Assembly (NCBI GenBank): GCA_000004985.1
Contig: GG738873.1
Strand: one strand, 5' to 3'
From: Naegleria gruberi
Lineage: Eukaryota
Length of the DNA stretch: 64,000 bases
Part shown: piece after piece, positions 37,318 to 64,000 of the stretch
Position numbering within the stretch: position 1 is the stretch's first letter
Layout of the letters: every line of letters begins with the position of its first letter
Notes under the pieces: model-generated
The model's input: the letters and a program-made list of their open reading frames with translations, nothing else
Database searches by the model: none
Told to the model about the DNA's origin: nothing
Made by a program: the position numbers and the translations under genes

Positions 37318-37320
37318 TAA

Positions 37321-42461: not shown

Positions 42462-43648
42462 ATGGTACTAACATTAATAGTTCTAAGAATAATCCGTTAG
42501 AGTATCTGGGTGCCTCCTTTATTAATAACATGTCTTGGTCTCCCTCCGATGATAAGGTTCTCTTAAAAGTTGAATCCAGATTACTAAATTTCAGACCAAA
42601 ACACTTGAGACTCGGTCCAATGAGGAACGTAATATTATCTAAGGTGCTTTCTGTACCTAGATACCTCTCAAGCGTAGATGCTATTCCACTTTCACTATTG
42701 GAAAAATTGGAAGTCAAAATTAGTGGAATTATTAAGAAAAGAATTGGATGTGACAACAGGCTCTCTAAAGCCGTTATATATGGTGATAAATCCCAGGGTG
42801 GACTTGGGCTTTTATCTCCAGTTGATATAAGTCACGTGGAAAGGATGGCATCTGTCTGTAGGTTTGTCAATTCTACCTCTCCTATCACCCAAAAAATCGC
42901 AAGAGCCATGATAAATAAGGCGCTCAAGGGTGAAACTACAGATTCACTGTGGAAAAATGCTGCCGCTACAATGAAAGATCTGAAATATTACTTCAAATCC
43001 ACAGATAATGGATGGGTCTTGTGTAACCATACCAATCACAAGCCTGTCTCCAACCTTAGAAATGCTATCATTGAAACTCAGCGATCCAAAAAAATTATCA
43101 ATAAGTTGGGCCAATTAGACAATGACTATAATTGGCATAACAGCACTCTCTCCTTCTGGAGAAACTCTCTCTTGTCTTATTATCAGCAAAGACTCCTCTA
43201 CTTTAATCTCCACCACTCAATTTTACTAGGTGATGACAGTACTTGTGACAAATGTAATGTCAAGGAAGATTGGACCCATGCATTCCAAACTTGTCCCAAA
43301 TGCAATCCTGAAAAGGATGAACTGTATGCCACATGGGACGCTATCTCCCAGAAATTTAGTATTAACAAGATTCGTTTCCCTCCTGATATCTCAGAATCCT
43401 CTCAACTTAGGATAGAATTTGATGGTCGTTGCTCCCGTAATTACTGGCTTAACTGGTCTAAGCGCAAAAAAATACCTAAGTATCTGGCCCTAGAAGTCTA
43501 CAAAGCACTAGCTATTTATTTGGAAAATTGCTACAAGAACTCAGTGTGGTACAACCGTCCCAATGCAAGCTTCACTATTAACAGGAAATACCTCTCTGCC
43601 TACCACAGGCAGGCTCAGTCTAACCAACCACTTAGCGTCAACCCATAA
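42437..43648 (+). pseudogene. LINE copy 2 downstream reading frame (RT thumb plus CCHC C-terminus), disconnected from the EN-RT frame by the 115-bp deletion
   Basis: Copy 1 positions 39654-39768 are absent from copy 2; 115 is not a multiple of 3. The downstream frame matches the copy 1 frame. Confidence 0.8.
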
Positions 43649-44261: not shown

Positions 44262-47200
44262 TTATTTTACCATGATTGTCAATGTATCTGCAATTAAACT
44301 TGTTGACAAGTAGGTATTGTATCCAATAGTTTCTTTTGTATATCTAATGGCATATCCATATGGGAAATAAGTCCAATTATTGCCATTGCACCCATCAGAG
44401 GAGTGAATTACACTGAGCCAATCTCTTTCACTACCACAACCACCAAAACCATATTGAATTATGAAATGCCTTGGAGTTATTGAAGGACCAGTCAATTGCA
44501 TGGTAAAAGCAGTATAGCTATTAACATAAGAGCTTAATCCGTAAGAGGAAGATTGTATTTTCTGAGGTGTAAACCAATTTTTGAAATCAGTACCTGCTAC
44601 GTTGAATAGAATATAGTGTTGCATTGCTGAGTCCTTGTTAATTTCGATCTTTACAGTACCAAACGAACTCCAATAATTCAAGAGGTCACCTATTAATACT
44701 GTATCTGGAGTATACTTGTCCAATGTTCCCCTAATATTGATCTTTGAATTCCAAACATCTGCAGGTCCATATGGTTGACCAGTTGCAATCTTATTAACAA
44801 GTGTGTAACCACCTCCATCAGTGGTCATGTCACAATACACGTTGAACGGAGCTACTGATGGATCTGGTTGGATAGTATAAACACCATCACCAACATTACC
44901 ACCATAGACTCTGCTAGAGTTTGTTGGGTATCTATAATCTTGGCACGTTCTGGCATAGGTAAAATCAGCAAATTTCCTTCCTTCACCACATCCAACTATA
45001 CCAACAATTGAACAGGAAGGTCCATAACGAGAAGGCCCACAAAAACATTGTCCATCAACGCAAACTCCTGCATAGTTGCAAGTAACACCAAGATTAGGAG
45101 CAGAGAAGCAATAAAGCTTTCCAGTTGGTACGTTATTGTCTGATGATAGACAGTAACTATACACCGAGCCATCTGTACTCCAGATAGAAACATTACTAGT
45201 GGATATATACTCATTGCTCCAGTAACTGTTGCTATACATTCGGGATGGTATTGAATTAGAATAGTTCGTATTCCAATACAACGACAAAGGAATGGTATAG
45301 ATGTCATGTCTTGAGAAACTGGAGGTTTCTTGCTCACAGAATACAGCTAGTGGAGGAAATCCTAATGATCCTTGAATAAGATAAAGACCTCTACCTGTCA
45401 TACCTTGATATGTTTTTGAAGAATTTGTTGGATTACTATATTCTGCACAGTTCTTGGCAAATGTTCCATCTGCATATCTTCTTAATCCATTAATAGAAAC
45501 AACACCCACCAATTCACAGAATTTACCAAAATGGCCATATTCACATTGGCATGTATCATAATCCACACAAACTCCTTTGGAGGAGCAAACAGATTTGCTG
45601 GATGCTTGAAAATTGTTACAATATACGCAGAAAAATGGGTTTTGCTTGCACCATTCTGAGGTTCTGTTTTCCCCATCATATACAGCCATCCATGACCCAA
45701 CTGGATCTTCCTTTTCTGCAACGGCAAAATATGGACCAGCGTTGCCATCGGTTGTGTTGGATCCACCGTAAATATATATATAACCACCTTGGGAGGATAT
45801 TATTCCTGAACTTGTCATATAGTATGGAAGTAAACCAAATGTCATTTCCCACTTCAATGGATTTTCTGTAGTAGCTCTAAAAATGTTGAATGAAGATGAC
45901 TCAAATGTTGTGGAACCACCAAATAGATAAATGTAATCACCAACAACTTCAATAAATGCAGAATACAATGGCACAGGAATGACAGAACCATTTACAATCT
46001 CGAATTGTGTAATATTTGACAATGGAGCCCTCATGATAGTGTCTAATATAACTGGAGTGAAGCTTGGGACATTGGAAGGGTCCTCAATATCTGTCAGTGG
46101 TCTATAACTGAATATTCTAGAAATGCCACCAAATATATAAACATAATCACCAGATTGCATTATCATACCCGATGCAACAGGGACTGGGAGAGAAAATGGA
46201 GTCTTTTCCCATTGTTTCAAATCATATAGAGGACATTTGTAAATTGCATTTGACACGTTATTGTTAACAATTCCCCCAAACAAGTACATTTCCTCATTGT
46301 GTTTGAAAAAGTGAGAGTTATGAATTGAATCTGGGAATCCCTCATTTGATGTGATATTATACTCTATCATCGACCAAACATTTTCATTTTTAGAGATGTT
46401 TCTAGTGTACATGCTGAATCCATTATTTACAAGTGATGGCACTGTGTCATCAGCTTTTAACAAATAACCAATCTCACCCAAATCAAAGTAAGTCATCTTC
46501 CTCATATACCATGGCAAGGTCATGGTGACATGATTATTCATTCTAACAAACTTTCCACTTGGACTAAGAGAATAAATTTTAGAGATTGGCGTTCCGGTCC
46601 AATGGTATGGTTTTGTGTCATAGCAAGAACTTCCAGCAAATATTTCAATATTAGAACAATAACCCACAGCCATAACTGTCCCATCTGCTAGGAATAAATA
46701 ACTATTATCTTCATTACTAGTTATGTCAACCACTGGTTGGAATGAATAATAGACTTTGGTAGGAACAAGAACATTGGAATTAGTTAAGCCAGTACCTGTC
46801 TGACCAGCGTCACTCTTACCCCAAGAATATAGAGTTCTATCTTTGCAATAAACAAAATTATGGAAAGCTTTCGTGTGTATCATTGTGGCAAAACAAGTAG
46901 TGTTTGGTCCAAATTGAGATAAAATCTTTGGAAGTAATCTGTTAGTGGTTGAGTTATCTCCAACTTGGTAATAATTATTAAGACCCCATGAATAGACTCT
47001 TCCACTTGTAGTTAGAATCAAGTTGTGTCCATATCCGCATTGAATATCAGTAATTGTTTCATTGATATGTTTTGTTATAACTTCAATAGGTTCTCCTTGA
47101 GATACATTGTTATTAGTACCAAGTTGTCCCCATCCATTGTAACCCATTGAATACAGTCTATTGGTATTCGACAATACAAGTGCATGCTTAAAACCAGCAC

Positions 47201-48286
47201 AAACCCTAACCATAGTTTGATTCATTAAGGCTGCATACCTGTAAACAGAAAAAGGCCTGTTTTTTTCATCCCAAGTTCTATCCCCCAGTTGACCTTGATC
47301 GTTAGCACCCCAGCTCCATAGTTTTCCTGATGAATCAATTGCGTAGGCTGAAAAATATCCTAGTGCGATTTGCTCAATTTTTGCACCTCTAAATCCATTT
47401 ACAAATGTTGGGACAAACTTTGTTTTGGTTCCTCCGGTAGCCAATTGTGAACGTTCATTTAACCCAAAAGCAAAAACTCCCTTGTTTGTGAGAATAAGGT
47501 TGGAAAATTGATTTGCCTCGATTTGAAGAATATCCAATCCATCTAAAAGTTCAACAGGAGCATTATATATTAATCTAGTATCATTGGTTAGATGAATTCT
47601 TCCAAGATTACCATTTTCAAAAACTCCAGTTGAGTACAATTTACCGTTGGGCATTAAAATTAATACATGTTTTAACCCAGCACTAATTCTATTTCTAATT
47701 CTTTTAATCGGCAGTCTTGTGTCAAATCTTTCGTAAACCCCTCTTTTACAATTGACAGTAAAATGATCTTGGTTTGTTTCATTTAAATTTGTTTCTCTAA
47801 AATACAATTCTTCACCATAGTCTTCTACGGTGTAATTCTTAACAATTTCAGTTTTTTTCGAAGTCAATTCATACTTACATTCATGACATCAGAAGATTTT
47901 CTTCCCAAATCCTCGATACTGTTTAATCCCAATGAAAGAATATATGAATTTTCCAGTTCCCAACTCAATACCTTTGCAACATTTTGATTGTTTTTGGAAA
48001 CCATAGATTCGAAAATAGTCTTATTGATATTAAGTTGTTCCAGGATTGGAGCTGCTAAATTCAATGCGTCCTCCTTGTCAATAGCTATTGGCTTGGCTCT
48101 ACTGCTGACAAATTTGTCGCGCTCCTCCTGAAGATTGGTCATAACGTTGATAAAACTCTTTTGTTTATCCTTCCAACTTTTAACCAAGGACATTTCATAT
48201 TGTTGTTCCTGATTGTTGATGTCGATATATCCACTTATCTCAACCGTATCATATATTAAAAGTACTAGTGGTAAAGTTGTCATCAT
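44262..48286 (-). CDS. Paralogue A of the RCC1-Kelch family, two exons: join(48286..47879, 47837..44262) with a 41-nt GTAAGT...TTAAG intron. Domain order: hydrophobic N-terminus MMTTLPLVLLIY, about 120-aa helical region, roughly 6 RCC1 repeats, LPWY motif linker, roughly 5 Kelch repeats, EGF-like Cys module, truncated FReD-like segment, second EGF-like module, fibrinogen-related domain
   Basis: RCC1 signatures (GYNGWGQLGTNNN, WGANDQGQLGD, HALVLSNT). Kelch signatures (EMYLFGG, YVYIFGG, YIYLFGG, YIYIYGG). FReD signature CQDYRYPTNSSRVYGGNVGDGVYTIQPDPSVAPFNVYCDMTTDGGGYTLV. The exon-1 ORF 47864..48286 ends in ATG AAT | GTAAGT, and the acceptor restores NYTVEDYG of the 1201-aa ORF in frame. Confidence 0.8.
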
Positions 48287-48497
48287 CCTATTAATGTTCT
48301 GATCACCTACATGTAATGGTTATAAACAATATTTTCATCATTTTAGAATAGCAACTACTTGTGGGAGATGATAGAGAGTCACTTTTCACAGTCTTCTCTC
48401 CACTCATTTTCTCTTTTTTTTTAAGATTACTGTGCCTTTACGGTAATGTATGGCGATTTTACAGTTTTTTAACAGTATATTTAGCGCAAAGAGTTTA

Positions 48498-50113
48498 TTA
48501 CAGATCTAGCTTTCTTCTTACAGAACGCTCATCTTCAACCTCGTTGACTTCTCCTGTTTCATCATCATCAAACAATCCACCACTGCCTGGAGGTAGAATT
48601 TCAGAACCAGATGGTGTAGAAATTCCAGATTCATTAAAACTTCTCTTTTGAGTAATACTTGACATGGATGATAAATTTGAAGCTGGTGAAATTAATAATT
48701 TACCATGTTGTTGTGGAGTACATGTTGCTTCTCCCATCATTTCATCATTCGAAACCATGCTAATATTATTTACACTACCAAGAGAATCTCTCCCTCTGAA
48801 AATACTATTTGGTCCCACTAAACTCATCATTGAGTAAGATGAAAGACCACTTGTATTTCCTGGACTGTCTTCAAAGTTTAAAACCTTACTGACAGAATTT
48901 GTAATTCTGTGATGAATTTCTTCTCCATACATTTTTGTGTGAGATTCATAATCTCTTCTCTCTTGTTCGTCATGGTTGATTGCAAGACGTTGATAAGAAT
49001 CCATGGCATGTTTTCTCTTTGGAACAGGAAGGTTAAGTTTAGGAGTTGGTTGAACACCACGAGTAAAGTAAGGATGATTAAGAGCTTGTTCAGCTGTGAT
49101 TCTCTTCTTTGGATCAAAAACAAGCATCTTACTAATTAAATCAATAGCATCACGACTGGCAGCAGTAAAGAGAGCATGGAATTCAGTCTTTTGGAATGGC
49201 TCAAATTCAATATAATTAGGTAATAATTTCATTCCAGGCCATTCTTCCTCAGAAGGTGTTCCCAAACAAGCAAATATCTTTCCCAATTGATCAATATCAG
49301 AATCTCCAGGGAAAAGAGGAGCACGTAACATGAGCTCAGCAAATATGCACCCAATACTCCACATGTCCACACTTGGACCATATAACTCAGCTCCAAATAA
49401 TAATTCTGGAGCTCTGTACCATCTGGTAACACATTGTGGAGAGTATCTCTTATCTGGTGAGCCATATATTTTAGCAAGACCCTTTTTTTAGATAATTTGA
49501 ATGTCTAATGTGCATTGTATTCCTCAATACTTACAAAGTCAGCAAGCTTTAGCTCTACTTCATTGGTTTCTTCGTTTTTCCACAAGAATAGATTGGAAGG
49601 TTTCAAGTCACGGTGGAGTACCCAATTTTTGTGACAATAGTCTACTGCTTCCAAAATCATTTTCATATATTGTTTAATGTCAGTTTCATGTAAAACTATA
49701 GTCTTTTCCTTTATAACTTGTTCCAGATCGCCAAAGCCACAATATTCAAAAACTAAATTAATATTCTTCTTATTCACAAATACATCCAATAAATTTAAAA
49801 TATTTTGATGTTTAATTTCTTGGAGTGATTTAACTTCACGGATAGCAGAAAATGAAACACCTTCTTCAATACCTCGGGCAGAATCAGATGAAAGTGATCC
49901 GAGCTTTATCTTTTTGATGGCTACTGTTTGATTTGTTTCAAGATCTTTTAAAATCGTTATTAAATTATAAATATACAATAATAATTTGTAGTTGTTGTTA
50001 TAGTTACACATACCTTTACACTTGTAAACAATACCGAAAGTACCCTCTCCGATAAAACAAATTCTTTCATACCTTCGTGCTCTTTGATTAGCGGCAAGTA
50101 AATAGTCAAGCAT
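48498..50113 (-). CDS. CDK7: CDK7-like cyclin-dependent kinase (CDK-activating kinase), three exons: join(50113..50014, 49944..49535, 49481..48498). Introns are 69 nt (GTATGT) and 53 nt (GTAAGT). Carries a C-terminal extension of about 170 aa, Ser/Thr-rich and acidic
   Basis: RYERICFIGEGTFGIVYKCK / DLETNQTVAIKKIKLG / HRDLKPSNL / LKLADF|GLAKIYGSPDKRYSPQCVTRWYRAPELLFGAELYGPSVDMWSIGCIFAEL / PGDSDIDQLGKIFACLGTP match human CDK7 block for block. Splice junctions restore the GxGxxG-to-VAIK and DFG-to-APE regions. Confidence 0.88.
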
Positions 50114-50172
50114 TTTTTTTGGCTTGTTTTTGAATATTTTATATTGAAACGATATGATTTGGCGCCAACTAG

Positions 50173-50185
50173 TTTATTATTTATT
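50173..50185 (-). promoter_or_regulatory. AATAAATAATAAA poly(A)-signal-like hexamers overlapping the stop codon of the ankyrin gene, only about 60 nt upstream of the CDK7 ATG
   Basis: Minus-strand reading ...TTG AAT AAA TAA taataaactagt... then 63 nt to the ATG at 50113. Confidence 0.35.
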
Positions 50186-52354
50186 CAATAAATTTTCCAA
50201 AAGATTAATAATCTCTGAAAAGTGAGTATTGTTCATGCACCCTGGATCATTCATTTGTTTCTTTAACAAATCCAAAACATTTACCTTATTTTCATCTTTA
50301 AGCATTATCCAAAGTGGAGAGTCGGGCGAATCATCGATATGAGAATTGAATTCCTCAATTAAAAATAAAGCACTTTCAAAATCCTTATCATTAACACATG
50401 AAAAGAGTAAAGACCTCATATTTTGATTCTGTATAAAGGACAATTTGACAAGCAATTTGGAATAATGTTGAGGAACCTGATACTTTTCAAATCTTTGTTT
50501 CATGAATTTAATTACCTGAGGGAGAAGTGCTGTATTATTCTCAACTCTACCAACCAAGTAAGTGAAAGGTAAATTATTGAATGAATCCATTTTGAGAGCA
50601 TTAGCTCCATGTCTTATTAGGAACAAAATTGATGCCAGTGGCAATTCTATACAAGTCTTGTGGAAAAATGGTATATTACCAGAGGTTTGTTTGTTGTGAT
50701 CGAAAGGGCATTCGTTGATATCTAATCCATATTCTAGTAGATTACGGCAAATTGATAGCTTTCCCTGTTTTAGAGATTCGAAAAAAACATCTATTACTGT
50801 TGGAATTTCCTCATTTGTTGTCGAAAAATCCAACGAAATTTGTTGAGTAAGGCACTTGTGGAATTTTTTCTTCATATCTTGGAAACGAGGTTTTCCCAAA
50901 AGATAACATTTGGAAAAAGTCTCTCCAAATGTCCATTTCCACAAAAACTCACAAATTTGTTTACAAGTCTCACCCTTCTTTTTGTCATCGAGAGTTATTG
51001 GGCTGTTTGCATCTTCGAGCAAAATGTAAAAGAGTGGTGTAAACCTTCTAGAATCTCGTTGTAACAAGAGTTCTGGGCACTCCTTGTACAAAAACTTGAG
51101 GGTATCAATTTGACCAAACTTTGCAGCAATATGCATGAGAGTACAATTATAATAATTTGAAAATGAAATACATCTTAGGAAGCATCTAAATTCTTGTCGT
51201 TGTCTGATAACATTGTTAAATCTCTCGTGAAGAAGGCTTTTCAATTGAATGAGGGTTGATTGGTCATTATTTACAGTAGAGAGGCAAGAAATTAAAAGTG
51301 ATTTCCATTCTTCAGAATTCATATGTACAGTGCTTGGGATATTTACAATGGTAGAGGATTGTTGATTGGAAGTTTGTGAGGAAAAAAGAGGAGCAGTGGC
51401 TATATTTGAGTGTCTTCTCAAGTAGTACGCTCTGGAATTGAGGGTATCTGTTGTTTCCTTATTGTGTTGCTCAGACCCAAATGTGAAAGAGCTACAAGCT
51501 AAAGAGGCGAAACTTTGGGCCTCATCAGTTGCTTCAAGGGAACTGACAGTGCTCGAGAAGGAAGACAGAAAGAGTGAATTTGAAAGCGAAGTAGGTGTTT
51601 GTTCATCAGAACTCAGTACTGAACTGTTAGTCATTGTTGTTGATGTTGAGGTGTTGAGTATCAAGGAACTGTCATCCTCCTCTGTGTAATCATTATCAAA
51701 ACTATCAGAGGTTGAGGTTTCAATAATGGTATTAACTGTGGAGGAAGCAGGTGCATTTTCCAGCTCTTCGAATGCCTTCTCTATGGAACGAATATTGTTG
51801 GTAATGCGTGTTGGGGTGGTAGGGAAGTTGGTTGTCTGTTTTTCAAATTCATTCTCATCATCTGTTGTTATTTCACTCGTAAAGTAATTTGGTTTAATGG
51901 CTTTTGGTTTGATAGGTTCATCCTGTTGTTGTTGTTGCAATTCCTTCTTCTTTGGTCTGTGAGAGAAAATATCCTGATCAAACATAATATCTGACTCACT
52001 AACACAAGAGGAAAATAAAGGCGAGCTTTTAGTTTTACCGAAGAGAGTTCTACTTCGCAAAAAGCCACCACTCTTCTTTTCCAATGATTGATCTGGTGAT
52101 GATACGATTATTGGAATGTTGGATTTTTCTTGTTGTTGGGAAGAAACAGCTGGATCACTATCACTACAAATACTGGTATTACATGATGATTTGCCTATAG
52201 GAAATGTTGATGGAGCAATACTTGCTCTCCTCGTTGATGAAGGAGGTGATGTTGTTGAAGTGTTATTGTTATTACACAAATAGGTGCCACTCCCAAAGTT
52301 ACTCCTCCTAGGAAGAAGAATTCTGTTTGGAGTTGTTGGTGTTGTTGAACTCAT
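50177..52354 (-). CDS. Ankyrin-repeat-containing protein with a long Ser/Thr/Asn-rich low-complexity N-terminus (725 aa). Function unknown
   Basis: ATG at 52354. ANK-like units (TLMHIAAKFGQIDTLKFLYKECPELLLQRDSRRFTPLFYIL; LFLIRHGANALKMDSFNNLPFTYL). No stop over 2.2 kb in AT-rich DNA. Confidence 0.5.
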   Translation of the reverse strand: MSSTTPTTPNRILLPRRSNFGSGTYLCNNNNTSTTSPPSSTRRASIAPSTFPIGKSSCNTSICSDSDPAVSSQQQEKSNIPIIVSSPDQSLEKKSGGFLRSRTLFGKTKSSPLFSSCVSESDIMFDQDIFSHRPKKKELQQQQQDEPIKPKAIKPNYFTSEITTDDENEFEKQTTNFPTTPTRITNNIRSIEKAFEELENAPASSTVNTIIETSTSDSFDNDYTEEDDSSLILNTSTSTTMTNSSVLSSDEQTPTSLSNSLFLSSFSSTVSSLEATDEAQSFASLACSSFTFGSEQHNKETTDTLNSRAYYLRRHSNIATAPLFSSQTSNQQSSTIVNIPSTVHMNSEEWKSLLISCLSTVNNDQSTLIQLKSLLHERFNNVIRQRQEFRCFLRCISFSNYYNCTLMHIAAKFGQIDTLKFLYKECPELLLQRDSRRFTPLFYILLEDANSPITLDDKKKGETCKQICEFLWKWTFGETFSKCYLLGKPRFQDMKKKFHKCLTQQISLDFSTTNEEIPTVIDVFFESLKQGKLSICRNLLEYGLDINECPFDHNKQTSGNIPFFHKTCIELPLASILFLIRHGANALKMDSFNNLPFTYLVGRVENNTALLPQVIKFMKQRFEKYQVPQHYSKLLVKLSFIQNQNMRSLLFSCVNDKDFESALFLIEEFNSHIDDSPDSPLWIMLKDENKVNVLDLLKKQMNDPGCMNNTHFSEIINLLENLLNK

Positions 52355-52857
52355 AAATCCAATTATTAATATTCGTCTCGAAGAGCAAAAAGAAAGATTT
52401 TAGCCTTCAGAGTATTTGAACGCTTTTCTTCAAAGTACGATGGCGACCACAGAGTAAAGTTGTTGAGAAGGGAAGATAAGTGGCGCTGGTGAAGAAGCGG
52501 TGAAAGCCTTTTTTTGCTCTTTTGTGCCTCAAGCCTTATGCAAGGCCTATTGGTGTGAGTTGAATGATTCTTTACAGAGGCGATGATGGATGTGGCTTGC
52601 AGCTCGTTTATACAAAAGCCTGGTAATGATGAGTGTGTGAATTAACCAATAATTTTACATGTATTTCTATCATACAACATTACGTTAACTCTATATTAAA
52701 TTAAATATTAAGAAGGAAACGTGAGAAGTTAATCACATTAGAACGTAACATTGATTCTGCTTACCAATCTATTAATAAATATTAAAAAAATTTGCAATAA
52801 TAACAATTTAAAACTGTAAAAGAGTTTGTCCAAGTCATAACATTCCAACTCCTTTTT

Positions 52858-54397
52858 ATGAATAATAGGTGGTTGCCAACAAACGACGATTCCTCATTCA
52901 TCCCTCTCGATCTACTCTCGTCCTCAATTACAGAGTGTCCACCTCTTCATTCTGAATCAAAAACAGAATCACTAACGACATTAAAAAAGCCAAGCAACAC
53001 CCAAAATTCATACATTCCTAAACGAATTAATTCTAAAGAAACTCGTCATCACCTCGATCATTATTATTATCACCAATTACAACAAGAAATTAGAGAAGAT
53101 CCCGATCAAACAATGAATATATTTTATTATAAACAACAATCGGAAAATCAATCCAATGATCCGAAATTAGCTACCAGAGGATGTAGCGAATTTGATGAAG
53201 TAGTACAACAATCTTCATCCATTGAAGGTGGTTCCAAGAAGGAAATTATAGAAGACAAGGAAAAATCAATTCTATTCTGTGGATTTAATCAGTTAAATAA
53301 TTTATTTGCAGTTGGTACTGAACAAGGTTTCTATGTCTATTCAACAGGTAGTCTACGTGAAAGGACCAAAATGTGTAAGTACTATTATTGGTCAAGAACC
53401 CATTTCTAATTTTAAAAAGTATTTAATGGAGGTATTGGAATTGTTGAAATGTTATTCAAGTCAAAGTAAGTAATTGACATTCAATGGTGGAATATTTAAT
53501 TTAAACAGTATTTTTGCTCTTGTGGGTGGAGGTTCAAAACCAGCCTTTGCACCTGATCGAGTTATTTTATGGGAAGACTCTCAAAAGAAGATTATTTCTG
53601 AAATTTCCACTGGAAACAAACCAATTAAGGCTGTTAAGTTACATAAAAACTTGCTAATTGTTGTACTGGAAGATCAAGTAATTGTCTATGATCATGATAT
53701 TAAGGAAAGAAGCAGAGATTCTACAACTGATAATCCTTATGGTATTTGTGCAATTTCTCCTGATACTGAAAATATTGTATTGGCCTACCCTTCAGTTCAA
53801 GTTGGATATATCACAGTTGATCATTTGACCATTCCAAATAGAAAACTTCATATCAAAGCCCATGAATCAAAAATATCTCAAATAGCACTCAACAAGGATG
53901 GTACTCGTGTAGCAACAGCCAGTGAGAAGGGAACACTAATTAGAGTATTTGATACAACTACCAAACTTTTGGTTAAGGAAGTAAGAAGAGGATCTAAACA
54001 AGCTCACATTTATTCTATTGCTTTTTCAGATGATTCTAATTTCATTTGTTGCTCTTCAGATACAGGTACTATTCACGTTTTTTCTCTTGTGGACAATACT
54101 CAAAATAGAACTTCAAGCTTCTCATTTGTAGGGGGTTATATTGCAAGCATTTTCAATTCAGAATGGAGTTTTGGTGAATATCGAGGAGGAGAAGATGGCC
54201 TTGTTGATATACCAACATTATGTTCATTTGCACCAAGAAAAGAAGAAGAAAAAACAATAGCTATCAATGTTTTAACTGGTAAAGGTGAGGTTGTAATTTT
54301 AACATTTGACGTTTCAGGAGGTCAAACAACCCCAACTAATGTTGAAAAGAAATCATTTGTTTCAAATGAATCTCCAAATAATTCTCCATCTCTTTAA
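52858..54397 (+). CDS. WIPI/Atg18-family PROPPIN (WD40 beta-propeller, phosphoinositide-binding RRG motif), three exons: join(52858..53374, 53420..53465, 53509..54397). It includes a 46-nt micro-exon, 45- and 43-nt introns, and an N-terminal extension of about 140 aa
   Basis: ILFCGFNQLNNLFAVGTEQGFYVYS (propeller blade 1). The micro-exon encodes LFNGGIGIVEMLFKS, matching the conserved IVEMLF motif of Atg18. TLIRVFDTTTKLLVKEVRRGSKQAHIYSIAFSDDSNFICCSSDTGTIHVFSL matches the WIPI (L/F)RRG block. Both donors are GTAAGT. Confidence 0.8.
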
Positions 54398-54595
54398 AGG
54401 ATGTATTATGAATAAAAGTGTAAATATTAGCATTTTGGATGATTTTATATTTAATTTTATTTTTGAATTTAAAAAAAAAACTAAAACTTTACTGTTTTGT
54501 TGATGGAGTCCTCTAGCAAAGATTATTAGGAGATTTGCTTTCTTCAAAAAACCGACTCGACTTTTTAACTATACTAGTATCACAACTCTTAAACA

Positions 54596-56658
54596 TGAAG
54601 AGGCAACACGAAGAATCATCAAGTGGCATTAAATTGGGTGATGATGACGTTAATCAATTCCTCCAATCCATAAACCGCTATAACAATCCCTTCATTACCG
54701 AATCATTACTTTCATCAAATAATTATTCTGATATTACATCACCAGAACATGCTCATGTTGACTCCGAGGATGAGGAGGATCAAACTTGTCAACCTTCCTC
54801 ATTGGCACCAGCAAGAAAGTTTAGAAAGATAAATTCCTCCAATTTATTGCTTGCCCAACATAATTTAGAAACAACAGCCGGTGATTTGGCTTGTGCTCCT
54901 TCTGTTTTTGATGATGATGAAGAAGAGGAAGACAATGAAGAGATTTATGATGACGAAAATCCAAGACTTATTGATAAAACAAGGACCGTTGGATCACTTT
55001 TGGATGAATTTCAAATACAAAATTGGTTTGATACAACAACTGATCTTGCCCACACTAAAATAACTGATTATTTCATATCCAATAAGAAGGTTATTTCTAT
55101 GCTGCATAGTATGAGATTACATTATGGATTGGAAATTGAATTTGGATCAACCCTTCTCTATAAGGTTTGGGAGTCCTCTCAGAGAAGATTGTTCAGCCAA
55201 TTAATGTTATCATTTTCTCCTGATTTGTACAATGAAAATATTGTTGAGATGAAAAGATATGCAGAGCCTCAACCAGGTGTGGAATATTTAAAGAGAGTTG
55301 TAAAGGAATATTTTGTGAAAGAAAACAGCCAAAATACCGAAATTCAAAATTTGAAAATTACAAAAGATTTAAGTATTGATGAAGAACTAATAAGAGTTGC
55401 CAAGTTTGTTCTCAATAGCAAGCAAAAGAGAATCAAACTTCTTTCGTGTACCATGGATGAATGGAATGAAGAATTGGATGTAATGAGTAATGGAGGATTT
55501 TCAGCAGCTGGAGCTTCCGTTGGAAGTCTAAAGAGCATTAATTTAACATCAGAAAATATTAGAAACTATAATAATACATCTGGGGAAGTTGTTACATCTC
55601 TTCAGTTTGTTGATAGCAACTCGGGCAAAAGCTTTATTTCTATTTCAGATGAGGATCCTCTAGATCCAGAGACTAGGAATATTACTGACCCAAGAGTGAG
55701 TGAAGCTAGATATAAAAGAGAAATGTACAGAATCAATCGTTGGAAGACAGAAGGAGCCTATCTAAGAAGATTATATATTGGTGAAATTGATGAAAACAAG
55801 TCATTTTCTTCAAATATGTTCTATGATGGGCAGTCTAGAATCAAATGTTCACCTTTACTGAAAAAATTATATTACAAATTCTTTACACACGTTCCAAGAA
55901 TGTTGGATATTGAAGAAGTTTTACGTTTACTTGTTTCAAAACCAAACGAGTCACACGAAATATTTACAAATCTAGAAACTCATGTGTTTAGAGAATTGGA
56001 TCGATTCAAGGTTAGCCTATGCTTGAAAATAGAAATAGCTTTCGAGGACATTTGTGGATTACATATTCAAAAGGCACCTAGTGGTCCTTATGGCTGGGCT
56101 TTATTAGTGCTAAAACTTGCAAAGAGACCCAAGTTCTTTACAAGACGTGTAATGAGCTCGGATAGAAAGAAAAATCTAGTTAAGCAACGAAATTCTGATT
56201 TCACTCCAAATAATATTGCATCCAAATACAGCACACATTATATAATCGGTGATGAAAGAGAACTGAAACGTATAGTTGCTCTAATGATTGAGGCTGATTC
56301 TGATGTTGGACATATTTGTAAACTATACAAACAAGGCATGGATGATATCTCATTCCCTACTAGCCCAGACTGGAGTTTTGAGGAAAGGAAATCTCAAACC
56401 CAATCCAAACAGAAGGAAATATCATATCCATCCAAGATTTCTTTCCAATCTGCTTTTTTATGCAAAGAAGACGAAGAAAATCAACGAGTGAATGAGGAAT
56501 TATACGATTCTGATGATGGTGTTTTCCCATTTGATGTTTCTATTGACAAACTGGATACAATTAGTAGGCAAAAGTATGAAAGACGACAATTGCAACTAGA
56601 AGATTTAGTAGATATGGAGAATAAGAATTTTGGATTGGATGAATGTTTTGTGCAATAA
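54596..56658 (+). CDS. Hypothetical acidic protein (about 687 aa from the first ATG, MKRQHEESSS...). DE-rich segment DDDEEEEDNEEIYDDE. No domain recognised
   Basis: Long open frame. The listed start at 54535 is TTG; the first ATG is at 54596. Internal introns cannot be excluded. Confidence 0.45.
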
Positions 56659-56662
56659 ATAT

Positions 56663-58344
56663 TTATCTCTTTTTTCCATAAGTGAAAAAGTTTTCCATAA
56701 TACTGCCAGAGGTGGCTGGATCAGAAAATGGACAACCAGAAGAACAAGGTTTGAATTCTTCTGACTTTTTGTTTTTGTAATATCTCAACCAAAAAGCTCT
56801 ATCAAAACTCTTCAAGAGTAGCCAATCATCTTGCCTTCCCTTATCAAAAAAGAGAGGATCCTTCTTTAAAATTGTATTGACAAATTCATCTAGTTCAGTA
56901 TGAGTGGTGAATTTGAAAACTTCTTGAGTAAAACCAAACTTTTCTTTCACTTCCTTTGGTAATGTATAATTCAACTCGCAACTTCCATTTGTTCTTAATT
57001 TCTCACAATAGTCATGAAGGGCTCCTTTAAACTTGAGCTCCAAACCCAATACTCTACAAAGTTCGTCAACAAAATGTTGACAGTTAGCCTTCTTTTGAGA
57101 ATACATCATGTTCATATTCCACTCACAAATTACATTACTAATCTTTTCGAGGGCTTCTCCAACCTGTGGTCCATGGAAGCATCTATCCACGTCAGCAGCT
57201 AGTACAGCAGCACCAGAGTAGCATTTTCTTGGTACAATTAATGATGAGTCATTCCACTATTTGTTGTTTCGATATGTTTCAATGAAATGATATTAAATTC
57301 ACTTACCTCTAAATACCATGGTCCTACTACTAGAGCAGAGTGAAAGAGTCCAAATTGAGGAACAACATTGAATGTATCTAAAACTGGAGAAAGGAATTTT
57401 CTGAAATTTCTTTGAGCAGCAGTTCTATGTAGTTCAACAATTACTAATTTGACCTTTAAAAATTCTTCATCCTTAATTATATAATTCTTATTAGTTTGCA
57501 GATCAGAAATTTCATTTTCCATTTTTTGTAAATCTCTCCTTTCTTCTTCATCAACCGCAGAATTGTTACCATCTTCAGCAATATTGGAAGCAATATTTGG
57601 AGCTCTACTTGAAGGGATAATTGATCCGAGATGTGATGTTGTAGAAGGTGGTGATCTACCAATTGGTTTTGAAGAAGGGGATGAGGTTGTATCATCATTG
57701 ATCAATTCTGTAATCGTCTTTTTTGTTGCAACAAAATCCTTATTCAAATAACTGTTTAAGAGATGCTTCTTGACGACTAAATTCTTTGCCTTGTCCTTTT
57801 TCTGTTTATCTGACAAGTTTTGCAAACCTTTCAATTTATCCAATTTACTCAAACACTTTTTAATGGCAACATCTTCATCAATCTGAGGAGTATGTGGGGT
57901 AGAAGGACTATTAATTGTTGTCAGTGATGATGGAGAAGTTGTATTATTTACATTGCTTTTTGTGGTGAGTGTTCGATCTAATTCTCTCATCAATTTGATT
58001 GCCACTCCAGTCGGAATATTCATTTCATCAACAAGTGTATCCTTTGTTAGGGACTCTAACATGGATCCATCAAGACCAACAAAATGTTTCTTATATTCAT
58101 CAAAACCATGAGTAGAAAGCCACTCCATCACCATATCATTGGTCCAATTAGAAATTTCCAAAATATGATTATTTGTTTGTTGTTGTATATAAAACCCTGA
58201 TGATGCTGTTGCTCTATTAATTTGTTGTTGTTGATTTTGTTGTTGGGTGAGAGGTTGTTTCTCAGAGGCGGCTTGTTGATCTTCCTCCGTAGTGACACCT
58301 CTTCCTTCACTCCAACTTGTCCACCAACTTTGGCCAAGACCCAT
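56663..58344 (-). CDS. SAM-domain protein with a C-terminal PPPDE/DeSI-like cysteine peptidase domain, two exons: join(58344..57307, 57256..56663) with a 50-nt GTAAGT...AATAG intron. The N-terminus MGLGQS fits an N-myristoylation consensus. Has poly-Q/N stretches
   Basis: SAM block: ISNWTNDMVMEWLSTHGFDEYKKHFVGLDGSMLESLTKDTLVDEMNIPTGVAIKLMREL. PPPDE block: FGLFHSALVVGPWYLE|WNDSS...YSQKKANCQHFVDELCRVLGL (His ... NCxHF...LC). The splice joins ORF 57238..58344 to ORF 56663..57190 in frame. Confidence 0.6.
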
Positions 58345-58401
58345 TTTTTATGTTGGAAGATATTTTGATTTTCTTGCTGCTCTAGAAATTTATTAATAAT
58401 T

Positions 58402-60971
58402 TTAATTACAAATGGTTGGATATTTTGAACAAATTGTTGAAAGGGCTGTAGTTGTACCACCAACCCAACCATCAGGGAAGCTTGTTCTGGTGGTTCTATA
58501 AATGTTAGGACCAACCAAACTGTTGCCTGTGGAAGCACCTGAGAACACGACATCATTAGCACTACTTGAAAAGACAGAAGAACCTGAATTGACATGGAAT
58601 GTGAGTTGGGATTTAAGGGTCCAGGAAACAAAATCAGATGTTGAATAAATCTTGTTTGATTGTGATGAAGAAAGGGATGTCAGACCTCCAATTATATAAT
58701 AATTACTGTCTGTGTCAACCTTGTAGACAAAAGCAGAATGTAGGACTGAAGGGAACTTGGAATTAAACATGATTTCCCAGTTTCTCATATCTGAATCTAC
58801 GCTTGTTCTTAATACAGTTTGAGAAATAACGAGATTTTGAATTGCATCAACATCTCTAGAAGAGTTGAAAAGATGTGTTTGCTTAATACCCCCAATGATA
58901 TACACATATTGTGTATCAGAAATCAGCATTCCTGATGCCAATGGGAACGGAAGCTTCTGGTCTAACAATTCCCATCCAAACAATGGGTCAGAAATAGGAG
59001 CTCTGTAAATTGAATTTGATATTTCATTATTAACAAACCCACCGAGCATATATATATATTCCTTGATTCTAATGATGTGTGTACTGTAGATTGATTTCCC
59101 ATAGAGCGTGTTATTGAGAACTGAGGTTGGAGATACTTGCTGCCATGAACTGTAATAGCTACCAGGATTGGTACTGTTGTAGTATCCAAATTCTAGACCA
59201 TTTCTTGATAAGAAACTCTTATCAGATTTAAGTAAATAACCTTTTCCGTTCAAATTGAAATATGGACTTTGTCTCAAATACCATGGTAAATAGGTAAAAG
59301 TGTACATGGAATCTTTTGTAAAGCTGTTAGAAACAGAACCAATTGACCTGAATACAGTTGTGGAGAAAGTACTGCCCGAGTAGTAGATGGATCCATCCAT
59401 CGTTTGAAGAGCAAAGCTTCCCGTTGAGCTACTAGCAATATCCAAAATGGAATCAACAAACTCTGTGCTAAAAGACGAGTAAAGAGTAGGTGAGGTCACA
59501 GTGGAAGCAGTTGAACCGAGTCCCAATTCACCATTTGAGTTTCTTCCATATCCGTACATTTTACCATTTGTGCAAATGAGTATTGTACTATAAAACTTTG
59601 AGTAAACTTTTTTAACACTACAAGGTGCGCTTAGGAGTTGAGGAGTGAACCTTGTGGTTGTGGATCCATCACCCAATTGACCATAGTTGTTGTATCCCCA
59701 TGTAACAACTTTTCCATCTGTAGTCAAAACAACAACGTGGTTAGATCCGCATTGAACATCAAGGATGTTAACTGCAGAGAGAGCACCAGTGAGTGGAATT
59801 GCTACAGGTTTACTTTTAAAAGAAGGATCTGTTACACCAATGCCTAATTGACCTAGAGAATTATCTCCAAATGAAGCTAACGTATTGTCACTTGTAAGGA
59901 CCACAACAAAACTATCTCCAGCGCAGACTTTGACAACTTGCTTGTTTTTTAAAGGTCCATTATTCTTTAGCACCTTAAAAGGTCTAAATTTATCTTCTTG
60001 GGTGCTGTCACCAAGTTGTCCTAAAGAGTTATCACCCCAGGCCCACAACTCGCCATCAGTTGTGATGGCGTACGAGCTTCTGCCTCCTGATGCAATTTGC
60101 TCAACTTTCTTCCCCAATAATCCTTTTACTTTAACTGGATTCAAACTATCAGCTTTGTTTCCAGTTCCTAATTGACCATTAGAATTGGAGCCAAAAGAGA
60201 ACAATCCCTCATTAGTAAGTACAAGATTTGTACGAGAGTATGTTTCTACTTGGTAGATAGTTTCAGAAGCAATAGGAATAGAGTCATTATACCTTAGTGC
60301 AGAACCGGAATAGGTTCTTCCAAGTAGCCCTACCTTTAAAGAGTCAATTCCAGTGGAATAGAGTTTTCCATTTCCTAAAATTACTATAAAATGTTGCTCA
60401 CCTCCGGAAAGGAAATTTCTAATTTGTTTTACAGTTCCTTGTGAGGTCTCTAAATTGAACAATGAATTGCCACTGTTTAGAAATCTTCCAGTTGGAACTT
60501 CTTCATTGCTGCCAATACTTTTGGTATAGGTAAAATCTTGTGATGTCAAAATGTCTTTTGAAATCATTCTCTAAGTGCAAACTAATTAATTTAGAATTTT
60601 TGTAAATTACTTACAGTGTGAAATTTTGTTATTGAGCTATTCGAAAAAGCAATGACCTTATTAATCATTTGCGTGACAATGCCAAGCTCTTCAAGCTTAG
60701 ACTTAATATCTTCCAAGGATTTTGATTTCAAAGCACTAAGGTTGTTTATGTAGTCTGCTGTAACTCCATACTGGGAAGCAAATGCAGATATACCATATGT
60801 ATCGTACAGAAAAGAAATTGAACTAGTAAATTCCAAATGAAGGTTTTTTGAGGTTTCTAAAGGAGGAATAAGTGTGGTGTTGATGTAATCAATTACATTG
60901 GAATGGGATACTCTTTGATTGAGACTCATCCTTAAGCCTTCCTCATAGTCCTCATATGTAAGGCCATCCAC
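58402..60971 (-). CDS. Paralogue B of the RCC1-Kelch family: join(60971..60615, 60570..58402) with a 44-nt GTAAGT...CACTTAG intron. Exon 1 is open upstream to about 61031 with no ATG, so a further 5' exon is likely. Ends after the Kelch propeller with no EGF or FReD tail
   Basis: RCC1 repeats (FGSNSNGQLGTGN, WGDNSLGQLGDST, WGYNNYGQLGDGSTT). LPWYLRQSPYF linker. Kelch repeats (YIYMLGG, YVYIIGG, YYIIGG). Exon-1 ORF 60591..60971 ends ..KFHT | GTAAGT. Same architecture as A and C. Confidence 0.75.
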
Positions 60972-61342
60972 AAGTAACGACTCGTATGATTGGGAGGCAA
61001 AGACAGAATCTGTGAGAGTTACCTCCGATTAATTGTTTTACTAATACCTACATGAAGAATAATTCAATAATAATAAAATTACAAGTAATCCAATCCACCA
61101 AACTGTTGTTGTTGTTGGCAATCTACTCATGTTGTGAGGAGGCCATTGCTTCTTTAAACACATTTTTGTTTTGTATGAGTTTGGTCAGATTTACAGCATA
61201 TTTGCATGCCGTAGACCCCGTAATGGCAGTAAGAAGCTGTAAATCTAACAACACCTCAAAAAAAAAATTAGATACCATCAGCTTACCATCACAGAGTGTG
61301 TGATCACATTGGAATAGTGAGGAATTGTATTATAGTGTAAGA

Positions 61343-64000
61343 ATGTTGTCTAAATCAAAAATGTGTGGGACTGTGATTCCCCGACTGTGTGTTATCGTGT
61401 TAATATTGTCTCTTATTCTAACAGGTATGTTGAAAAATAGTTGGAGTTTATATCTTTTCGTTAGTCTTTGCTGAAACAGACTTGACCAATGAGCAAATTG
61501 ACGAATTGAGAGCAAAAATGTTAAAAAGAAAAAACTATCTGGATGTAAAACAACTTTATGTAAAACAAAAAGCTGAAACCGACAAAACCAATATTAAAAA
61601 GAGATTGTTCGAGACCAGGAATAGCTTAGATGTTGCAGGAAACTTTTTAAATGAAACTACAATTTCTCAGAGTTCTTACGATGCATTAATGCAAACTAAA
61701 CAATCCCAATTGCAAAACTTAATGAGCATACACTTGGAAGTAGATAATTTACTCTCCATCATCCAAAATTCTGCTGACATGTTGAATGATGACGTAATAA
61801 CATTTGTTAGAGTAAGTAGATTTAAACCTTACTGAATAATTCTTTTTAGCAACATACCCAAAAAGCACGTACTATTGATAAATATGTATCCACCAATCAA
61901 ACACTTACAACATCTGATTTCAATATAACTTCAATGGAAGGAACTTTACCATCACATTATATGGCCAATTCAAATGGTATAAGAAGAATTAGGAATAGAA
62001 TATCTGCTGGCTATCAACACTTCTTATTACTTTTACCAAATGGAAAATTGTACACAACCGGATTACTTCAAAGTAACAATTTGGGTAGAAGCCAAGGATC
62101 AAACATGCTTGATATTTTATACCCTGTAGAAGGTTTAGAAGGAAAGGAAATTTTACAATTCGAATCAAATGGTTTTTTCAGTTTAGTTCTCACCACTGAT
62201 GGTGTTTACTCATTTGGCTTTAACAATAAGGGTCAATTAGGTACTGCCGATATTGTTGACAGAAATTATGCAGTTAAAGTGAAAGGATTTGCTGGAAACA
62301 ATATTACTCAAATTGCAGTAGGAATATCTTCTTCTTATGCAATTGATACCAATGGAAAAGCATGGTCCTGGGGAAGCAACGAATTTGGTCAGTTAGGAGA
62401 CAGAACAGGAGGTGACAAGGCAAGACCTTTCTCAGTTTACAATAATGGAACAATGTTTGGTAAAAAGCCAGTCAAGATCTGTGGTGGTAACAGATACGGA
62501 GTTATATTAACAAAGGATGGTATTCTCTATTCATTTGGTAACCATGATGTTGGTCAATTAGGAATTCCCTCAGTTTCAGTGTCGTACAAGTCTATTGAGC
62601 CAGTGAAAGTTGTTTTGTCAGCCTTTGTAAATTCCACAGTAATTGATGTTCAATGTGGATATGACCATGTTTTAGTATTGTTGGCAGATGGTTCAGTAGG
62701 TGCTTGGGGTAATAACAATTATTATCAAATGGGTGACCAATCAACAGCAATAAGATTTGTTCCAAAACTTATTTCTCAAATTCCTTGCAAAGTAGCATCT
62801 ATTCATACACGTTTCAATACTAACTTTGCCATTTGCAGAGACAATACAATCTACGCTTGGGGACGAAATGATAATGGTCAAACTGGTTTAGGCACAAGCT
62901 ATAGTGATGGTTCAGCCATGCCTAATGTATTGGTACCAACAAAATTAACATTTGTTCCAGAAGGCAGAGTGGTAGAAATTGCTACAACTCAATTTCACAC
63001 TGTTCTACTTACTTCTGAAGGAGTCTTCCATGGGGTTGGACGTGCTGACACCATGTTCAGATCTTCCTCTTTCAATCCAAACACTTTTTCTGTGTTAAAT
63101 GCATACTTGAAATCTGTTGTTCCTTGGCAATTAAGAAAGATACCATATTTTGAAACTGCAGACAGACTTTATATTTTGTTGGCTGACAAGGTAGCCCCAA
63201 CAAGAAGCTACAACGGATTCAACATGTATTTCAGAAATAGAAATGAGTCAGAAAAGGCCTGGAGATTAGTAGAGTTTGACAAAGAAACGAACACAGGATT
63301 CCCTGTTTCTATATACAGTACACATTACTTGAAACTTGACGAATATGTATACTTCTTTGGTGGATTTATTAATGACCACCTATCGAATGCTGTTTACAGA
63401 GCTCCATACAGTGATGTTGAAACAGGTTGGGAGCTTTTACAAAATGTCACAATTCCGGTTCCGCTCGCTGGTGGAATGACAGCAATAATCAATAATTTCT
63501 TTTACATCTTTGGCGGAATATCAAGCTTGTACAATAGTACCACAGGTGAATATAGACCAGAAGTATCTGATATCATAATGAGAGCCCCTTTGTCCAATAT
63601 TTCTGACTGGCAAATAGTTCCAAACAGAAATTTGGTGACACCCATTCATACTGGCCAAATGGCAATTGTTTGGCCTCATGTATACATTTTTGGTGGTTGC
63701 CAAACTGTGTTCACTTCATCTATGAATATTTTCAGAGCTTTACTTTCTGATCCAACCACTTGGGAAATGACATTTGGTTTGTTGCCTCATTACACAGCTA
63801 ATGCTGCTATTGTTTCTACCGGGGAGAATTTAGTGGTTGTTGGTGGAGGTGCATATCCTGAAAAACCAGGAGGTGTATTCATAGCCAAGGCAAACAAAGC
63901 TGATCCAGTAGGATCCTGGATGGCTGTTAGTGAAGTACTTCCAGATTTCCAGGCTGCAGCTGGTGCTCTCAATGGCACAGAGCTTACTCTGATTGGACAT
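61343..64000 (+). CDS. Paralogue C of the RCC1-Kelch family (3' end beyond the window): exon 1 is 61343..61424 (signal peptide MLSKSKMCGTVIPRLCVIVLILSLILT), exon 2 starts at 61465 or 61480 and ends at 61811, and exon 3 is 61850..64000+. Introns are 40 or 55 nt (GTATGT) and 38 nt (GTAAGT)
   Basis: Hand-spliced. Exon-1 phase-1 donor ACA G|GTATGT. Both candidate acceptors keep DLTNEQIDELRAK in frame. The second intron GTAAGTAGATTTAAACCTTACTGAATAATTCTTTTTAG joins ..VITFVR to QHTQKARTIDKY...IRRIRNRISAGYQHFLLLLPNGKLYTTG, followed by RCC1 and then Kelch repeats (YVYFFGG, FFYIFGG, VYIFGG). Confidence 0.7.

Follow-up and report, generated by a model that had tools for sequence, protein, structure and literature searches.

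In a 64,000-nucleotide stretch of the Naegleria gruberi genome (contig GG738873.1 of assembly GCA_000004985.1; hereafter the window) three paralogous genes, which we call A, B and C, encode proteins in which a predicted signal peptide and a predicted helical region are followed by a propeller of RCC1-like repeats and a second propeller of the Kelch type. The protein of gene A continues into epidermal growth factor (EGF)-like modules and a terminal domain resembling the fibrinogen-related domain (FReD). Secretion of all three proteins is likely, and we interpret them as secreted, multivalent extracellular binding proteins, lectin-like or adhesive, an interpretation to which we assign a probability of about 45%. 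The combination of a signal peptide with RCC1-like and Kelch propellers and, in some members, a bacterial-type fibrinogen-like head has not been described in the sources searched and would be a new architecture. Literature searches turned up no paper on it and it fits no named family; an earlier note, made from the letters of this stretch alone, could not place it in one either. All modules save the N-terminal helical region are known folds.

According to this interpretation, the signal peptide would send the protein into the secretory pathway and the mature protein would open with a three-helix region of about 115 residues, perhaps a folded stalk or an oligomerisation module. The tandem RCC1-like and Kelch-type propellers would offer broad binding faces, with which an adhesin or opsonin would bind glycans or surface polymers of bacterial prey, of the substrate or of other cells. 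In long forms such as A the EGF spacer would hold out the fibrinogen-like head, as in ficolins, tenascins and intelectins, and in short forms, B and C among them, binding would be left to the propellers alone.

EGF-like and FReD modules with conserved cysteines are typical of extracellular proteins. A and many of its relatives carry such modules as in-frame fusions, which counts for an extracellular location, and in the members scanned Pfam detected no domain of the intracellular partner type (BTB, F-box, HECT or others). The best matches outside Naegleria of the RCC1, Kelch and FReD-like parts are large multi-domain bacterial or metagenomic proteins. Their further modules are of the Ig-like, FN3, TIG or endosialidase-chaperone kinds, and we read such a composition as typical of surface or secreted proteins. 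In several members there are also sub-threshold matches to the propeller of attractin and to NanM, a Kelch propeller that binds sugar. The presence of a counterpart of every subfamily in other Naegleria species speaks for a function that has been conserved and against decay.

Gene structure

All three genes consist of three exons (Table 1), which splicing joins into a single open frame in each gene. Exon 1 is a mini-exon of 31-82 nucleotides (nt) that holds the ATG and a hydrophobic run and ends in phase 1; the donor of the following intron reads GTAGGT in A and B and GTATGT in C. Exon 2 (386, 395 and 347 nt in A, B and C, respectively) ends in phase 0 at GTAAGT, and both propellers are encoded in the long exon 3. 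Intron 2 is situated in the same alignment column in A, B and C (41, 44 and 38 nt) and contains an in-frame stop; this stop and the frame-shifting length of the intron mean that splicing is required. The earlier note had placed three paralogues, which proved to be intact, at these positions and a GTAAGT intron of 38-44 nt at the same relative position, and in both respects the sequence reading and the splice models agree with it. The order of leader, helical exon and propeller exon was also given correctly, but two exons were counted instead of three because the upstream mini-exon had been overlooked. A reading of A, B and C as pseudogenes or chance open reading frames was rejected in view of the intact frames, of orthologues in three species and of the conserved intron positions.

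The same plan is found outside the window. On its locus, N. fowleri FDP41_001825 is divided into residues 1-20, 21-136 and 137-1172, and its second exon boundary falls in the same VN/NYT column (the slash marks the boundary) as intron 2 of gene A. In an unnamed N. fowleri product the residues VSVVICLVEAAQHIFNK stand at the intron 2 position (residues ~200-216), with VS corresponding to GTAAGT, and this insertion looks like intron 2 kept in frame in the gene model.

The first exon of gene A (start at 48341) is inferred by analogy with B, C and FDP41_001825, and an alternative start at 48286, which also gives a hydrophobic N-terminus, is conceivable. Gene A aligns end to end with N. lovaniensis C9374_009311 and with one N. 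fowleri protein (44-45% identity, 98-99% coverage). The protein collection searched contained no identical or near-identical product, and gene A appears to be unannotated in the N. gruberi reference. Annotated B (NAEGRDRAFT_49708 / XP_002676255, 721 amino acids (aa), 58402-60567 on the minus strand) corresponds to exon 3 alone. The stop of B lies within the motif CSKYPTIC, which opens the EGF region in its relatives, so that B does end right after the Kelch propeller, as first described; the next gene begins 58 bp downstream and therefore no EGF or FReD tail can be hidden there. Gene C runs past the end of the window. On an environmental contig which is 99.46% identical to positions 57669-64000 it continues for 27 more codons to a stop, and complete C has 887 aa and neither EGF nor FReD modules. 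B and C are divergent, the head-to-head arrangement noted before, although with the corrected first exons 212 bp separate their start codons and not about 370 bp. This spacer is possibly a shared promoter region.

Leader and helical region

A, B and C have their sole hydrophobic segment at the N-terminus. Its core of 12-17 residues could hardly span a membrane, being too short, and no second such segment was found in the three proteins. A hydrophobic N-terminus had previously been seen in A and C and only suspected in B, where it is now clear with exon 1 included (MSRLPTTTTVWWIGLLVILLLL). C has a cleavage-like site, VFA/E (the slash marking the cleavage position), and the full-length relatives carry a leader of the same kind. 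We infer from these features a cleavable signal peptide that is split across exons 1 and 2.

If the leader exons were mis-modelled or belonged to other transcripts, A, B and C could instead be intracellular RCC1-like and Kelch adaptors, acting like guanine nucleotide exchange factors (GEFs) or as ubiquitin-ligase substrate receptors. The RCC1-like domains characterised in eukaryotes are found inside the cell, as are most Kelch domains, the best fold matches of the first propeller are UVR8, RPGR and HERC2, and the current annotation of B begins at the propeller exon. However, A, B, C and FDP41_001825 share the upstream plan of leader and helical exon with matching intron phases, and annotated N. 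fowleri and N. lovaniensis proteins include both regions. With the in-frame EGF and FReD modules and the lack of BTB, F-box and HECT matches described above also speaking for the outside of the cell, we consider an intracellular role highly improbable.

The helical regions encoded by exon 2 are only 7-15% identical among A, B and C and 35-39% identical between orthologues, so that the equivalence of these exons in A, B and C is based on position and exon plan and not on sequence. No match was found for the region in Pfam (best E-values 0.002-0.3, to scattered unrelated families) or among PDB sequences (best E = 5.8). When 5.8 billion proteins were searched with its profile, only open reading frames of the same family were recovered. 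A structure model was computed for the mature form of the N. lovaniensis orthologue of A, and the exons from the window were included as rows of the alignment. In this model the region forms three long helices (residues 7-44, 47-67 and 73-119) with a predicted local distance difference test score (pLDDT) of 81-90. The helical prediction made earlier for this exon is thus supported in the orthologue of A.

The two propellers

At the level of sequence the RCC1 identity of the first propeller is beyond doubt in all three proteins. The Pfam model WD40_RLD scores 222.9, 247.2 and 215.5 bits in A, B and C, respectively (cut-off 150), and the RCC1 model 147-171 bits, the lowest value being that of A with five repeats. 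In the orthologue model (overall pLDDT 82.9, predicted template modelling score (pTM) 0.71) pLDDT mostly exceeds 90 in this propeller, which is followed by a second all-beta domain. Foldseek with the orthologue model matched the RCC1-like domains of UVR8, RPGR and HERC2 with E-values of 1e-23 to 5e-31 and target template modelling (TM) scores of 0.80-0.86. RCC1 and these three proteins share the seven-blade propeller with the Naegleria domain, both by Pfam and by fold match, but they are nuclear or cytosolic and only ~18-26% identical to it, whereas the Naegleria domain is situated behind a predicted signal peptide and fused to Kelch, EGF and FReD modules. In such an extracellular context a Ran-GEF activity would be unlikely.

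Between the propellers lies the linker LPWY..R..YF, which is conserved in the family, with R585 and F590 invariant, in accordance with the conservation first noticed within the window. The Kelch identity of what follows is less evident in single proteins. A alone passes Kelch_6 (28 bits, cut-off 25.3) and Kelch_2 (23 bits, cut-off 21.3), the best Kelch match of C stays at 35.6 bits under a cut-off of 50, and B alone has no Pfam Kelch match, yet it aligns along the whole family profile. Among the relatives, C9374_002176 (59 bits) and FDP41_003733 (51.9 bits) pass PF24681 (cut-off 50). A profile of the Kelch region built from 13 family members matched only Kelch proteins in PDB (all 21 matches at E < 1), with KLHDC10 (4.9e-9), LZTR1 (1.1e-6) and NSP1 (2e-5) as the best, and this makes the Kelch identity clear at the family level. 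The second propeller of the orthologue model is all-beta with pLDDT mostly of 74-95 and a strand pattern fitting five to six blades. RCC1 and Kelch repeats are accordingly present in the same spliced open reading frame, as originally proposed, the former by Pfam and the latter at the level of the family profile.

An exhaustive search of 1.84 billion representative proteins with the Kelch-region profile gave 2451 matches. Clear Pfam Kelch domains are present in the non-family matches scanned, many of which are giants of the multi-Kelch type. The first ~75 positions of the profile, which include the linker, were matched by family members only, and all linker-matching members scanned have RCC1 repeats in front. 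Four of the giant proteins (3902-6915 aa, from metagenomic or bacterial contigs) contain 13-18 Kelch-propeller stretches that match the family profile, and in one of them endosialidase tail-spike and chaperone domains occur as well. Bacterial proteins of the 'alpha-tubulin suppressor-like RCC1 family' and the multi-Kelch giants resemble the Naegleria proteins in combining RCC1 or Kelch propellers with modules of the adhesion type (Ig-like, FN3 and TIG in their case), but an N-terminal helical region and spliceosomal introns are lacking in them. The RCC1-Kelch tandem with the LPWY linker was not seen outside the Naegleria family among the top matches examined.

Kelch-type propellers can also be catalytic, and A, B and C might be secreted enzymes, either galactose or glyoxal oxidases or sialic-acid mutarotases like NanM, whose remaining modules target the substrate. 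The Pfam NANM model does reach 23-29 bits (cut-off 45) in FDP41_011001, C9374_002176 and one environmental protein, and there are sub-threshold matches to the 'Galactose oxidase, central domain' Kelch models. All of these lie under the curated cut-offs, however, and reflect the generic Kelch repeat, and the best PDB matches, KLHDC10 and LZTR1, are non-catalytic substrate-receptor Kelch domains. An enzymatic function seems to us quite improbable. A parallel is provided by attractin and MEGF8, which have a Kelch propeller outside the cell with EGF modules on its flanks; the Pfam model Beta-prop_ATRN-LZTR1 gives 24-39 bits in C and in relatives, under its cut-off of 50. Neither the other modules of attractin and MEGF8 (CUB, C-type lectin, PSI, laminin-EGF) nor a membrane span were found in A, B or C.

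Tail of gene A

Residues 867-1330 of A comprise a Cys-rich EGF-like module, a fibrinogen N-terminal subdomain, a spacer rich in S, Y and N, a second EGF-like module and a 247-residue terminal domain, so that everything claimed for this tail is present: both EGF-like modules, the truncated fragment of a fibrinogen domain and the FReD-like domain at the end. The matches of the first EGF-like module to Pfam EGF_2 and EGF_TEN stay under threshold, and the module is kept in orthologues which UniRef labels 'EGF-like domain-containing'. The second module also remains under threshold (EGF_Teneurin 22.1 bits, cut-off 24.3; EGF_Tenascin 18.7 bits), and the relative FDP41_001832 passes EGF_Teneurin clearly with 67-68 bits. 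The truncated fragment keeps the N-terminal subdomain up to VFCEQ, loses the DGGGW motif and passes into the spacer. The first unit, EGF plus the start of a FReD, duplicates the second (31% identity over 144 aa, E = 1e-18).

The terminal domain of A passes NCBIfam NF040941 (GGGWT_bact, the fibrinogen-like YCDxxxxGGGW domain) with 61.6 bits and that of FDP41_001825 with 48.5 bits (cut-off 30). Pfam Fibrinogen_C also scores above its cut-off (31.6 against 22 bits), covering profile positions 11-53 of 221 only. The motif YCDMTTDGGGYT is present in A, and C21, C58, D59, M60 and G66 are invariant in the alignment of the FReD-like domains. In PDB a profile of the domain found only FReDs and intelectins, with tenascin as the best match (7e-13) and ficolin, fibrinogen, FIBCD1, angiopoietin and intelectin among the others (down to 1e-5). 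An AF2 model of the domain reached pLDDT 59.8 and pTM 0.63, with 95 residues under pLDDT 50, and all 50 Foldseek matches listed for it were FReDs or intelectin (TM 0.31-0.44; for the best matches, all FReDs, TM 0.37-0.44 and E ~3e-6). The only end-to-end relative outside the family is a 357-aa protein (32% identity, E = 1e-26) encoded on contigs with 62-65% GC, where it adjoins the gene for a mechanosensitive channel with a cNMP-binding domain; it is probably bacterial because of the high GC and this neighbor. Judged from these comparisons, the domain belongs to the FReD superfamily, but to its bacterial GGGW kind and not to the canonical full FReDs. The 'full FReD' of the earlier note has to be revised, since only the first 45-75 residues match canonical FReDs and the rest resembles a bacterial variant, modelled at low confidence.

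Animal FReD proteins with an N-terminal assembly region (tenascins, ficolins, angiopoietins) and intelectins show a similar plan of signal peptide, N-terminal helical region, spacer modules (tenascin- or teneurin-like EGF among them) and C-terminal fibrinogen-like head, and the best PDB matches of the head of A are to these proteins. The Naegleria proteins differ in having propellers in place of FN3 or collagen modules, and in A clear likeness is limited to the N-terminal part of the head, the ligand pocket being unrecognisable. The tenascin plan proper consists of heptad repeats, EGF, FN3 and FReD; no FN3 match was found in the members scanned and the resemblance is one of plan only. Bacterial NF040941 proteins, for which A scores over the cut-off, share with its tail the final ...V(R/K) strand and, in one case, alignment from end to end. 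They differ from it in that the Naegleria domain ends a eukaryotic secreted double-propeller protein and is situated behind EGF modules.

These similarities raise the question of whether horizontal transfer from bacteria gave rise to the fibrinogen-like tail and perhaps to the propellers as well, an origin that would be compatible with any function. In addition to the NF040941 score and the full-length alignment with the 357-aa protein, animal FReDs match only 12-46% of the A tail query, mostly under one third, and the best non-Naegleria RCC1 and Kelch matches are the bacterial or metagenomic giant proteins. The scores of the giants are nevertheless inflated by many repeat copies, and at identities of 25-34% bacterial RCC1 domains cannot be told from eukaryotic ones, one HERC-like protein from a heterolobosean reaching 29%. 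Moreover, the direction of transfer could be either, and the genes have a Naegleria-like GC content and spliceosomal introns. On the sequences at hand, transfer from bacteria appears somewhat unlikely.

Family and its age

The earlier note had described a family of three, while N. gruberi has at least six members: A, B and C, two more from their scaffold (NAEGRDRAFT_68523 and 49691) and one from a different scaffold (NAEGRDRAFT_73810). The contig bearing NAEGRDRAFT_68523 does not overlap the window. NAEGRDRAFT_73810 combines RCC1, Kelch and a FReD-like domain without EGF. Relatives were found in N. fowleri (FDP41_001824, 001825, 001826, 001832, 003733, 011001 and one unnamed product) and in N. 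lovaniensis (C9374_009311, 009414 and 002176), and the six Naegleria relatives that were measured are 37-51% identical to A over 64-99% of its length. They are annotated only as hypothetical, 'EGF-like' or 'RCC1-like domain-containing' proteins, and share with A, B and C the leader, the helical region, RCC1, the LPWY linker and Kelch, with or without EGF and FReD-like modules, as well as the exon plan. All named relatives come from Naegleria and the remaining ones from environmental contigs, in accordance with the lineage-specific family proposed earlier; as far as the searched sequences go, the family is so far restricted to Naegleria.

Clustering of three members is observed in N. fowleri too, where FDP41_001824, 001825 and 001826 are adjacent on VFQX01000028.1 (1-20396). 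There FDP41_001824 and 001825 stand head to head with ~65 bp between the gene models, the cluster is followed by a gene for a 469-aa teneurin-type EGF protein, and FDP41_001832 is situated on the same contig. The genes neighboring these orthologues and paralogues differ from those of the window, and tblastn gave no matches that would indicate synteny of the window with the N. fowleri or N. lovaniensis loci.

A neighbour-joining tree built from 642 propeller columns distributes A, B and C over three separate clades, and N. fowleri or N. lovaniensis relatives are present in all three. The closest sequence to each gene is found in another species (40-59% identity) and not among the other paralogues of the window, although B is only slightly nearer to its foreign relative (39.7%) than to C (37.0%). 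It follows that the duplications are older than the split of the species. This disagrees with the previous view that the family expanded by local duplication: going by the tree, the paralogues are old and their clustering is inherited, not recent.

Function

A structural role outside the cell, in the cyst wall, the surface coat or an adhesive matrix, with propellers and EGF modules as scaffold or cross-linkers, has to be weighed against a binding function. The evidence for an extracellular location applies to it equally, EGF and FReD modules together with a putative N-terminal helical assembly region resemble tenascin-like matrix proteins, tenascin being also the best PDB match, and stable one-to-one subfamilies would suit housekeeping structural roles. 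On the other hand, there are no repetitive, low-complexity or cross-linking wall motifs save the single S/Y/N-rich spacer in A, nothing ties any member to encystment, and the short forms B and C are without matrix-like modules. We regard a structural function as unlikely.

Several points speak against secreted, lectin-like or adhesive binders as well. The stable one-to-one subfamilies are unlike fast-evolving immune-type receptor families, and N-glycosylation sequons are not enriched in comparison with shuffled sequence or with neighboring genes. Oligomerisation through the helical region is a guess, the protein having been modelled as a monomer only. In A the region for the canonical Ca2+- and acetyl-binding pocket is divergent and falls under pLDDT 50, and lectin activity is for this reason unreadable from its sequence. 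The literature, searched with locus tags and domain terms, contains no paper on any member or on a named family with this architecture.

A more specific proposal within the preferred interpretation of A, B and C as secreted binders is that the family is an old secreted set of pattern-recognition-like proteins, with modules nearest to bacterial surface proteins, which is oligomerised by the three-helix region and captures or discriminates bacterial prey. So detailed a role is speculative and, as it stands, would be an unlikely one to prove correct in full.

Genomic setting

More than half of the window is a run of N, and the real sequence (34823-64000) has a GC content of ~35% (Table 1). Retroelements occupy the region at 35-44 kb, and ordinary genes sit between the paralogues. 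The reverse transcriptase and the weak Dam-type methyltransferase match in the first retroelement frame are reminiscent of DIRS-like retroelements; a 239-aa open reading frame of unknown type adjoins it. A partial, near-identical copy of the LINE-like element at 39210-40253 spans an assembly gap, one of two 50-N gaps in the retroelement region (37268-37317 and 40188-40237). Between A and B, a 725-aa open reading frame (50180-52354) is identical to N. gruberi XP_002676253 (NAEGRDRAFT_68517), which identifies the window as nuclear DNA of this species. At 56663-58344, on the minus strand, a 368-aa open reading frame with a SAM domain and one of 175 aa are separated by 47 nt and may be two exons of one gene.

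Table 1. Features of the window (ORF, open reading frame; strand in brackets).
Feature	Position	Details
Run of N	1-34822	more than half of the window
627-aa ORF	35213-38040 (-)	reverse-transcriptase domain; weak Dam-type methyltransferase match (23.6 bits, under cut-off)
LINE-like element	39210-43648 (+), region	endonuclease and reverse-transcriptase domains at 40350-42461, then 422-aa ORF 42380-43648
Gene A, 1330 aa	44262-48341 (-)	exons 48341-48311 (start inferred), 48264-47879, 47837-44262
Gene A introns	48310-48265; 47878-47838 (-)	46 nt, phase 1; 41 nt, GTAAGT, phase 0
A, predicted signal-peptide end and helical region, residues ~22-139	47879-48264 (-)	exon 2
A, RCC1-like seven-blade propeller, residues ~185-560	46575-47702 (-)	Pfam WD40_RLD, RCC1
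A, linker LPWYMRK..YF and Kelch-type propeller, residues 580-866	45657-46517 (-)	four Y.FGG blades and flanking strands
A, first Cys-rich module, WCKxxPxxCxxC and EGF-like, residues 867-915	45510-45656 (-)	Cys spacing read directly
A, truncated fibrinogen-related fragment, residues 916 to ~985	45300-45509 (-)	alignment to the start of the terminal FReD-like domain
A, second EGF-like module, residues 1057-1083	45006-45086 (-)	C-x5-C-x4-C-x-C-x8-C read directly
A, C-terminal FReD-like domain, residues 1084-1330	44265-45005 (-)	YCDMTTDGGGYT; NCBIfam NF040941
Protein kinase, two ORFs divided by a short intron	48498-50113 (-)	between paralogues
PROPPIN-type WD40 protein, two ORFs	52858-54397 (+)	between paralogues
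707-aa protein, TRF2/HOY1 PH-like domain	54535-56658 (+)	between paralogues
Gene B, 880 aa	58402-61130 (-)	exons 61130-61052, 61009-60615, 60570-58402
Gene B introns	61051-61010; 60614-60571 (-)	42 nt, phase 1; 44 nt, GTAAGT, phase 0
B, RCC1 propeller	~59350-60426 (-)	Pfam WD40_RLD
B, Kelch-type propeller	~58435-59289 (-)	
B-C spacer between divergent start codons	61131-61342	212 bp, from corrected first exons
Gene C, 860 aa up to the window end	61343-64000+ (+)	exons 61343-61424, 61465-61811, 61850-64000+
Gene C introns	61425-61464; 61812-61849 (+)	40 nt, phase 1; 38 nt, GTAAGT, phase 0
C, RCC1 propeller	~61985-63064 (+)	Pfam WD40_RLD
C, Kelch-type propeller	from 63119 onward (+)	

Conclusions

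For the N. gruberi reference annotation these results mean that B is represented without its leader and helical exons and that gene A is apparently missing altogether. If A, B and C are indeed secreted binders, eukaryotes would use RCC1-like propellers outside the cell as well, and fibrinogen-like recognition heads would extend to a free-living, non-animal predator of bacteria. Should the prey-recognition proposal also be true, the family would represent an independent non-animal counterpart of recognition of the ficolin and intelectin type, and the first functional extracellular RCC1-like domain in a eukaryote. As secreted binders these proteins would in any case be candidate surface molecules for prey capture and host-cell adhesion in the genus to which the pathogen N. 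fowleri belongs.

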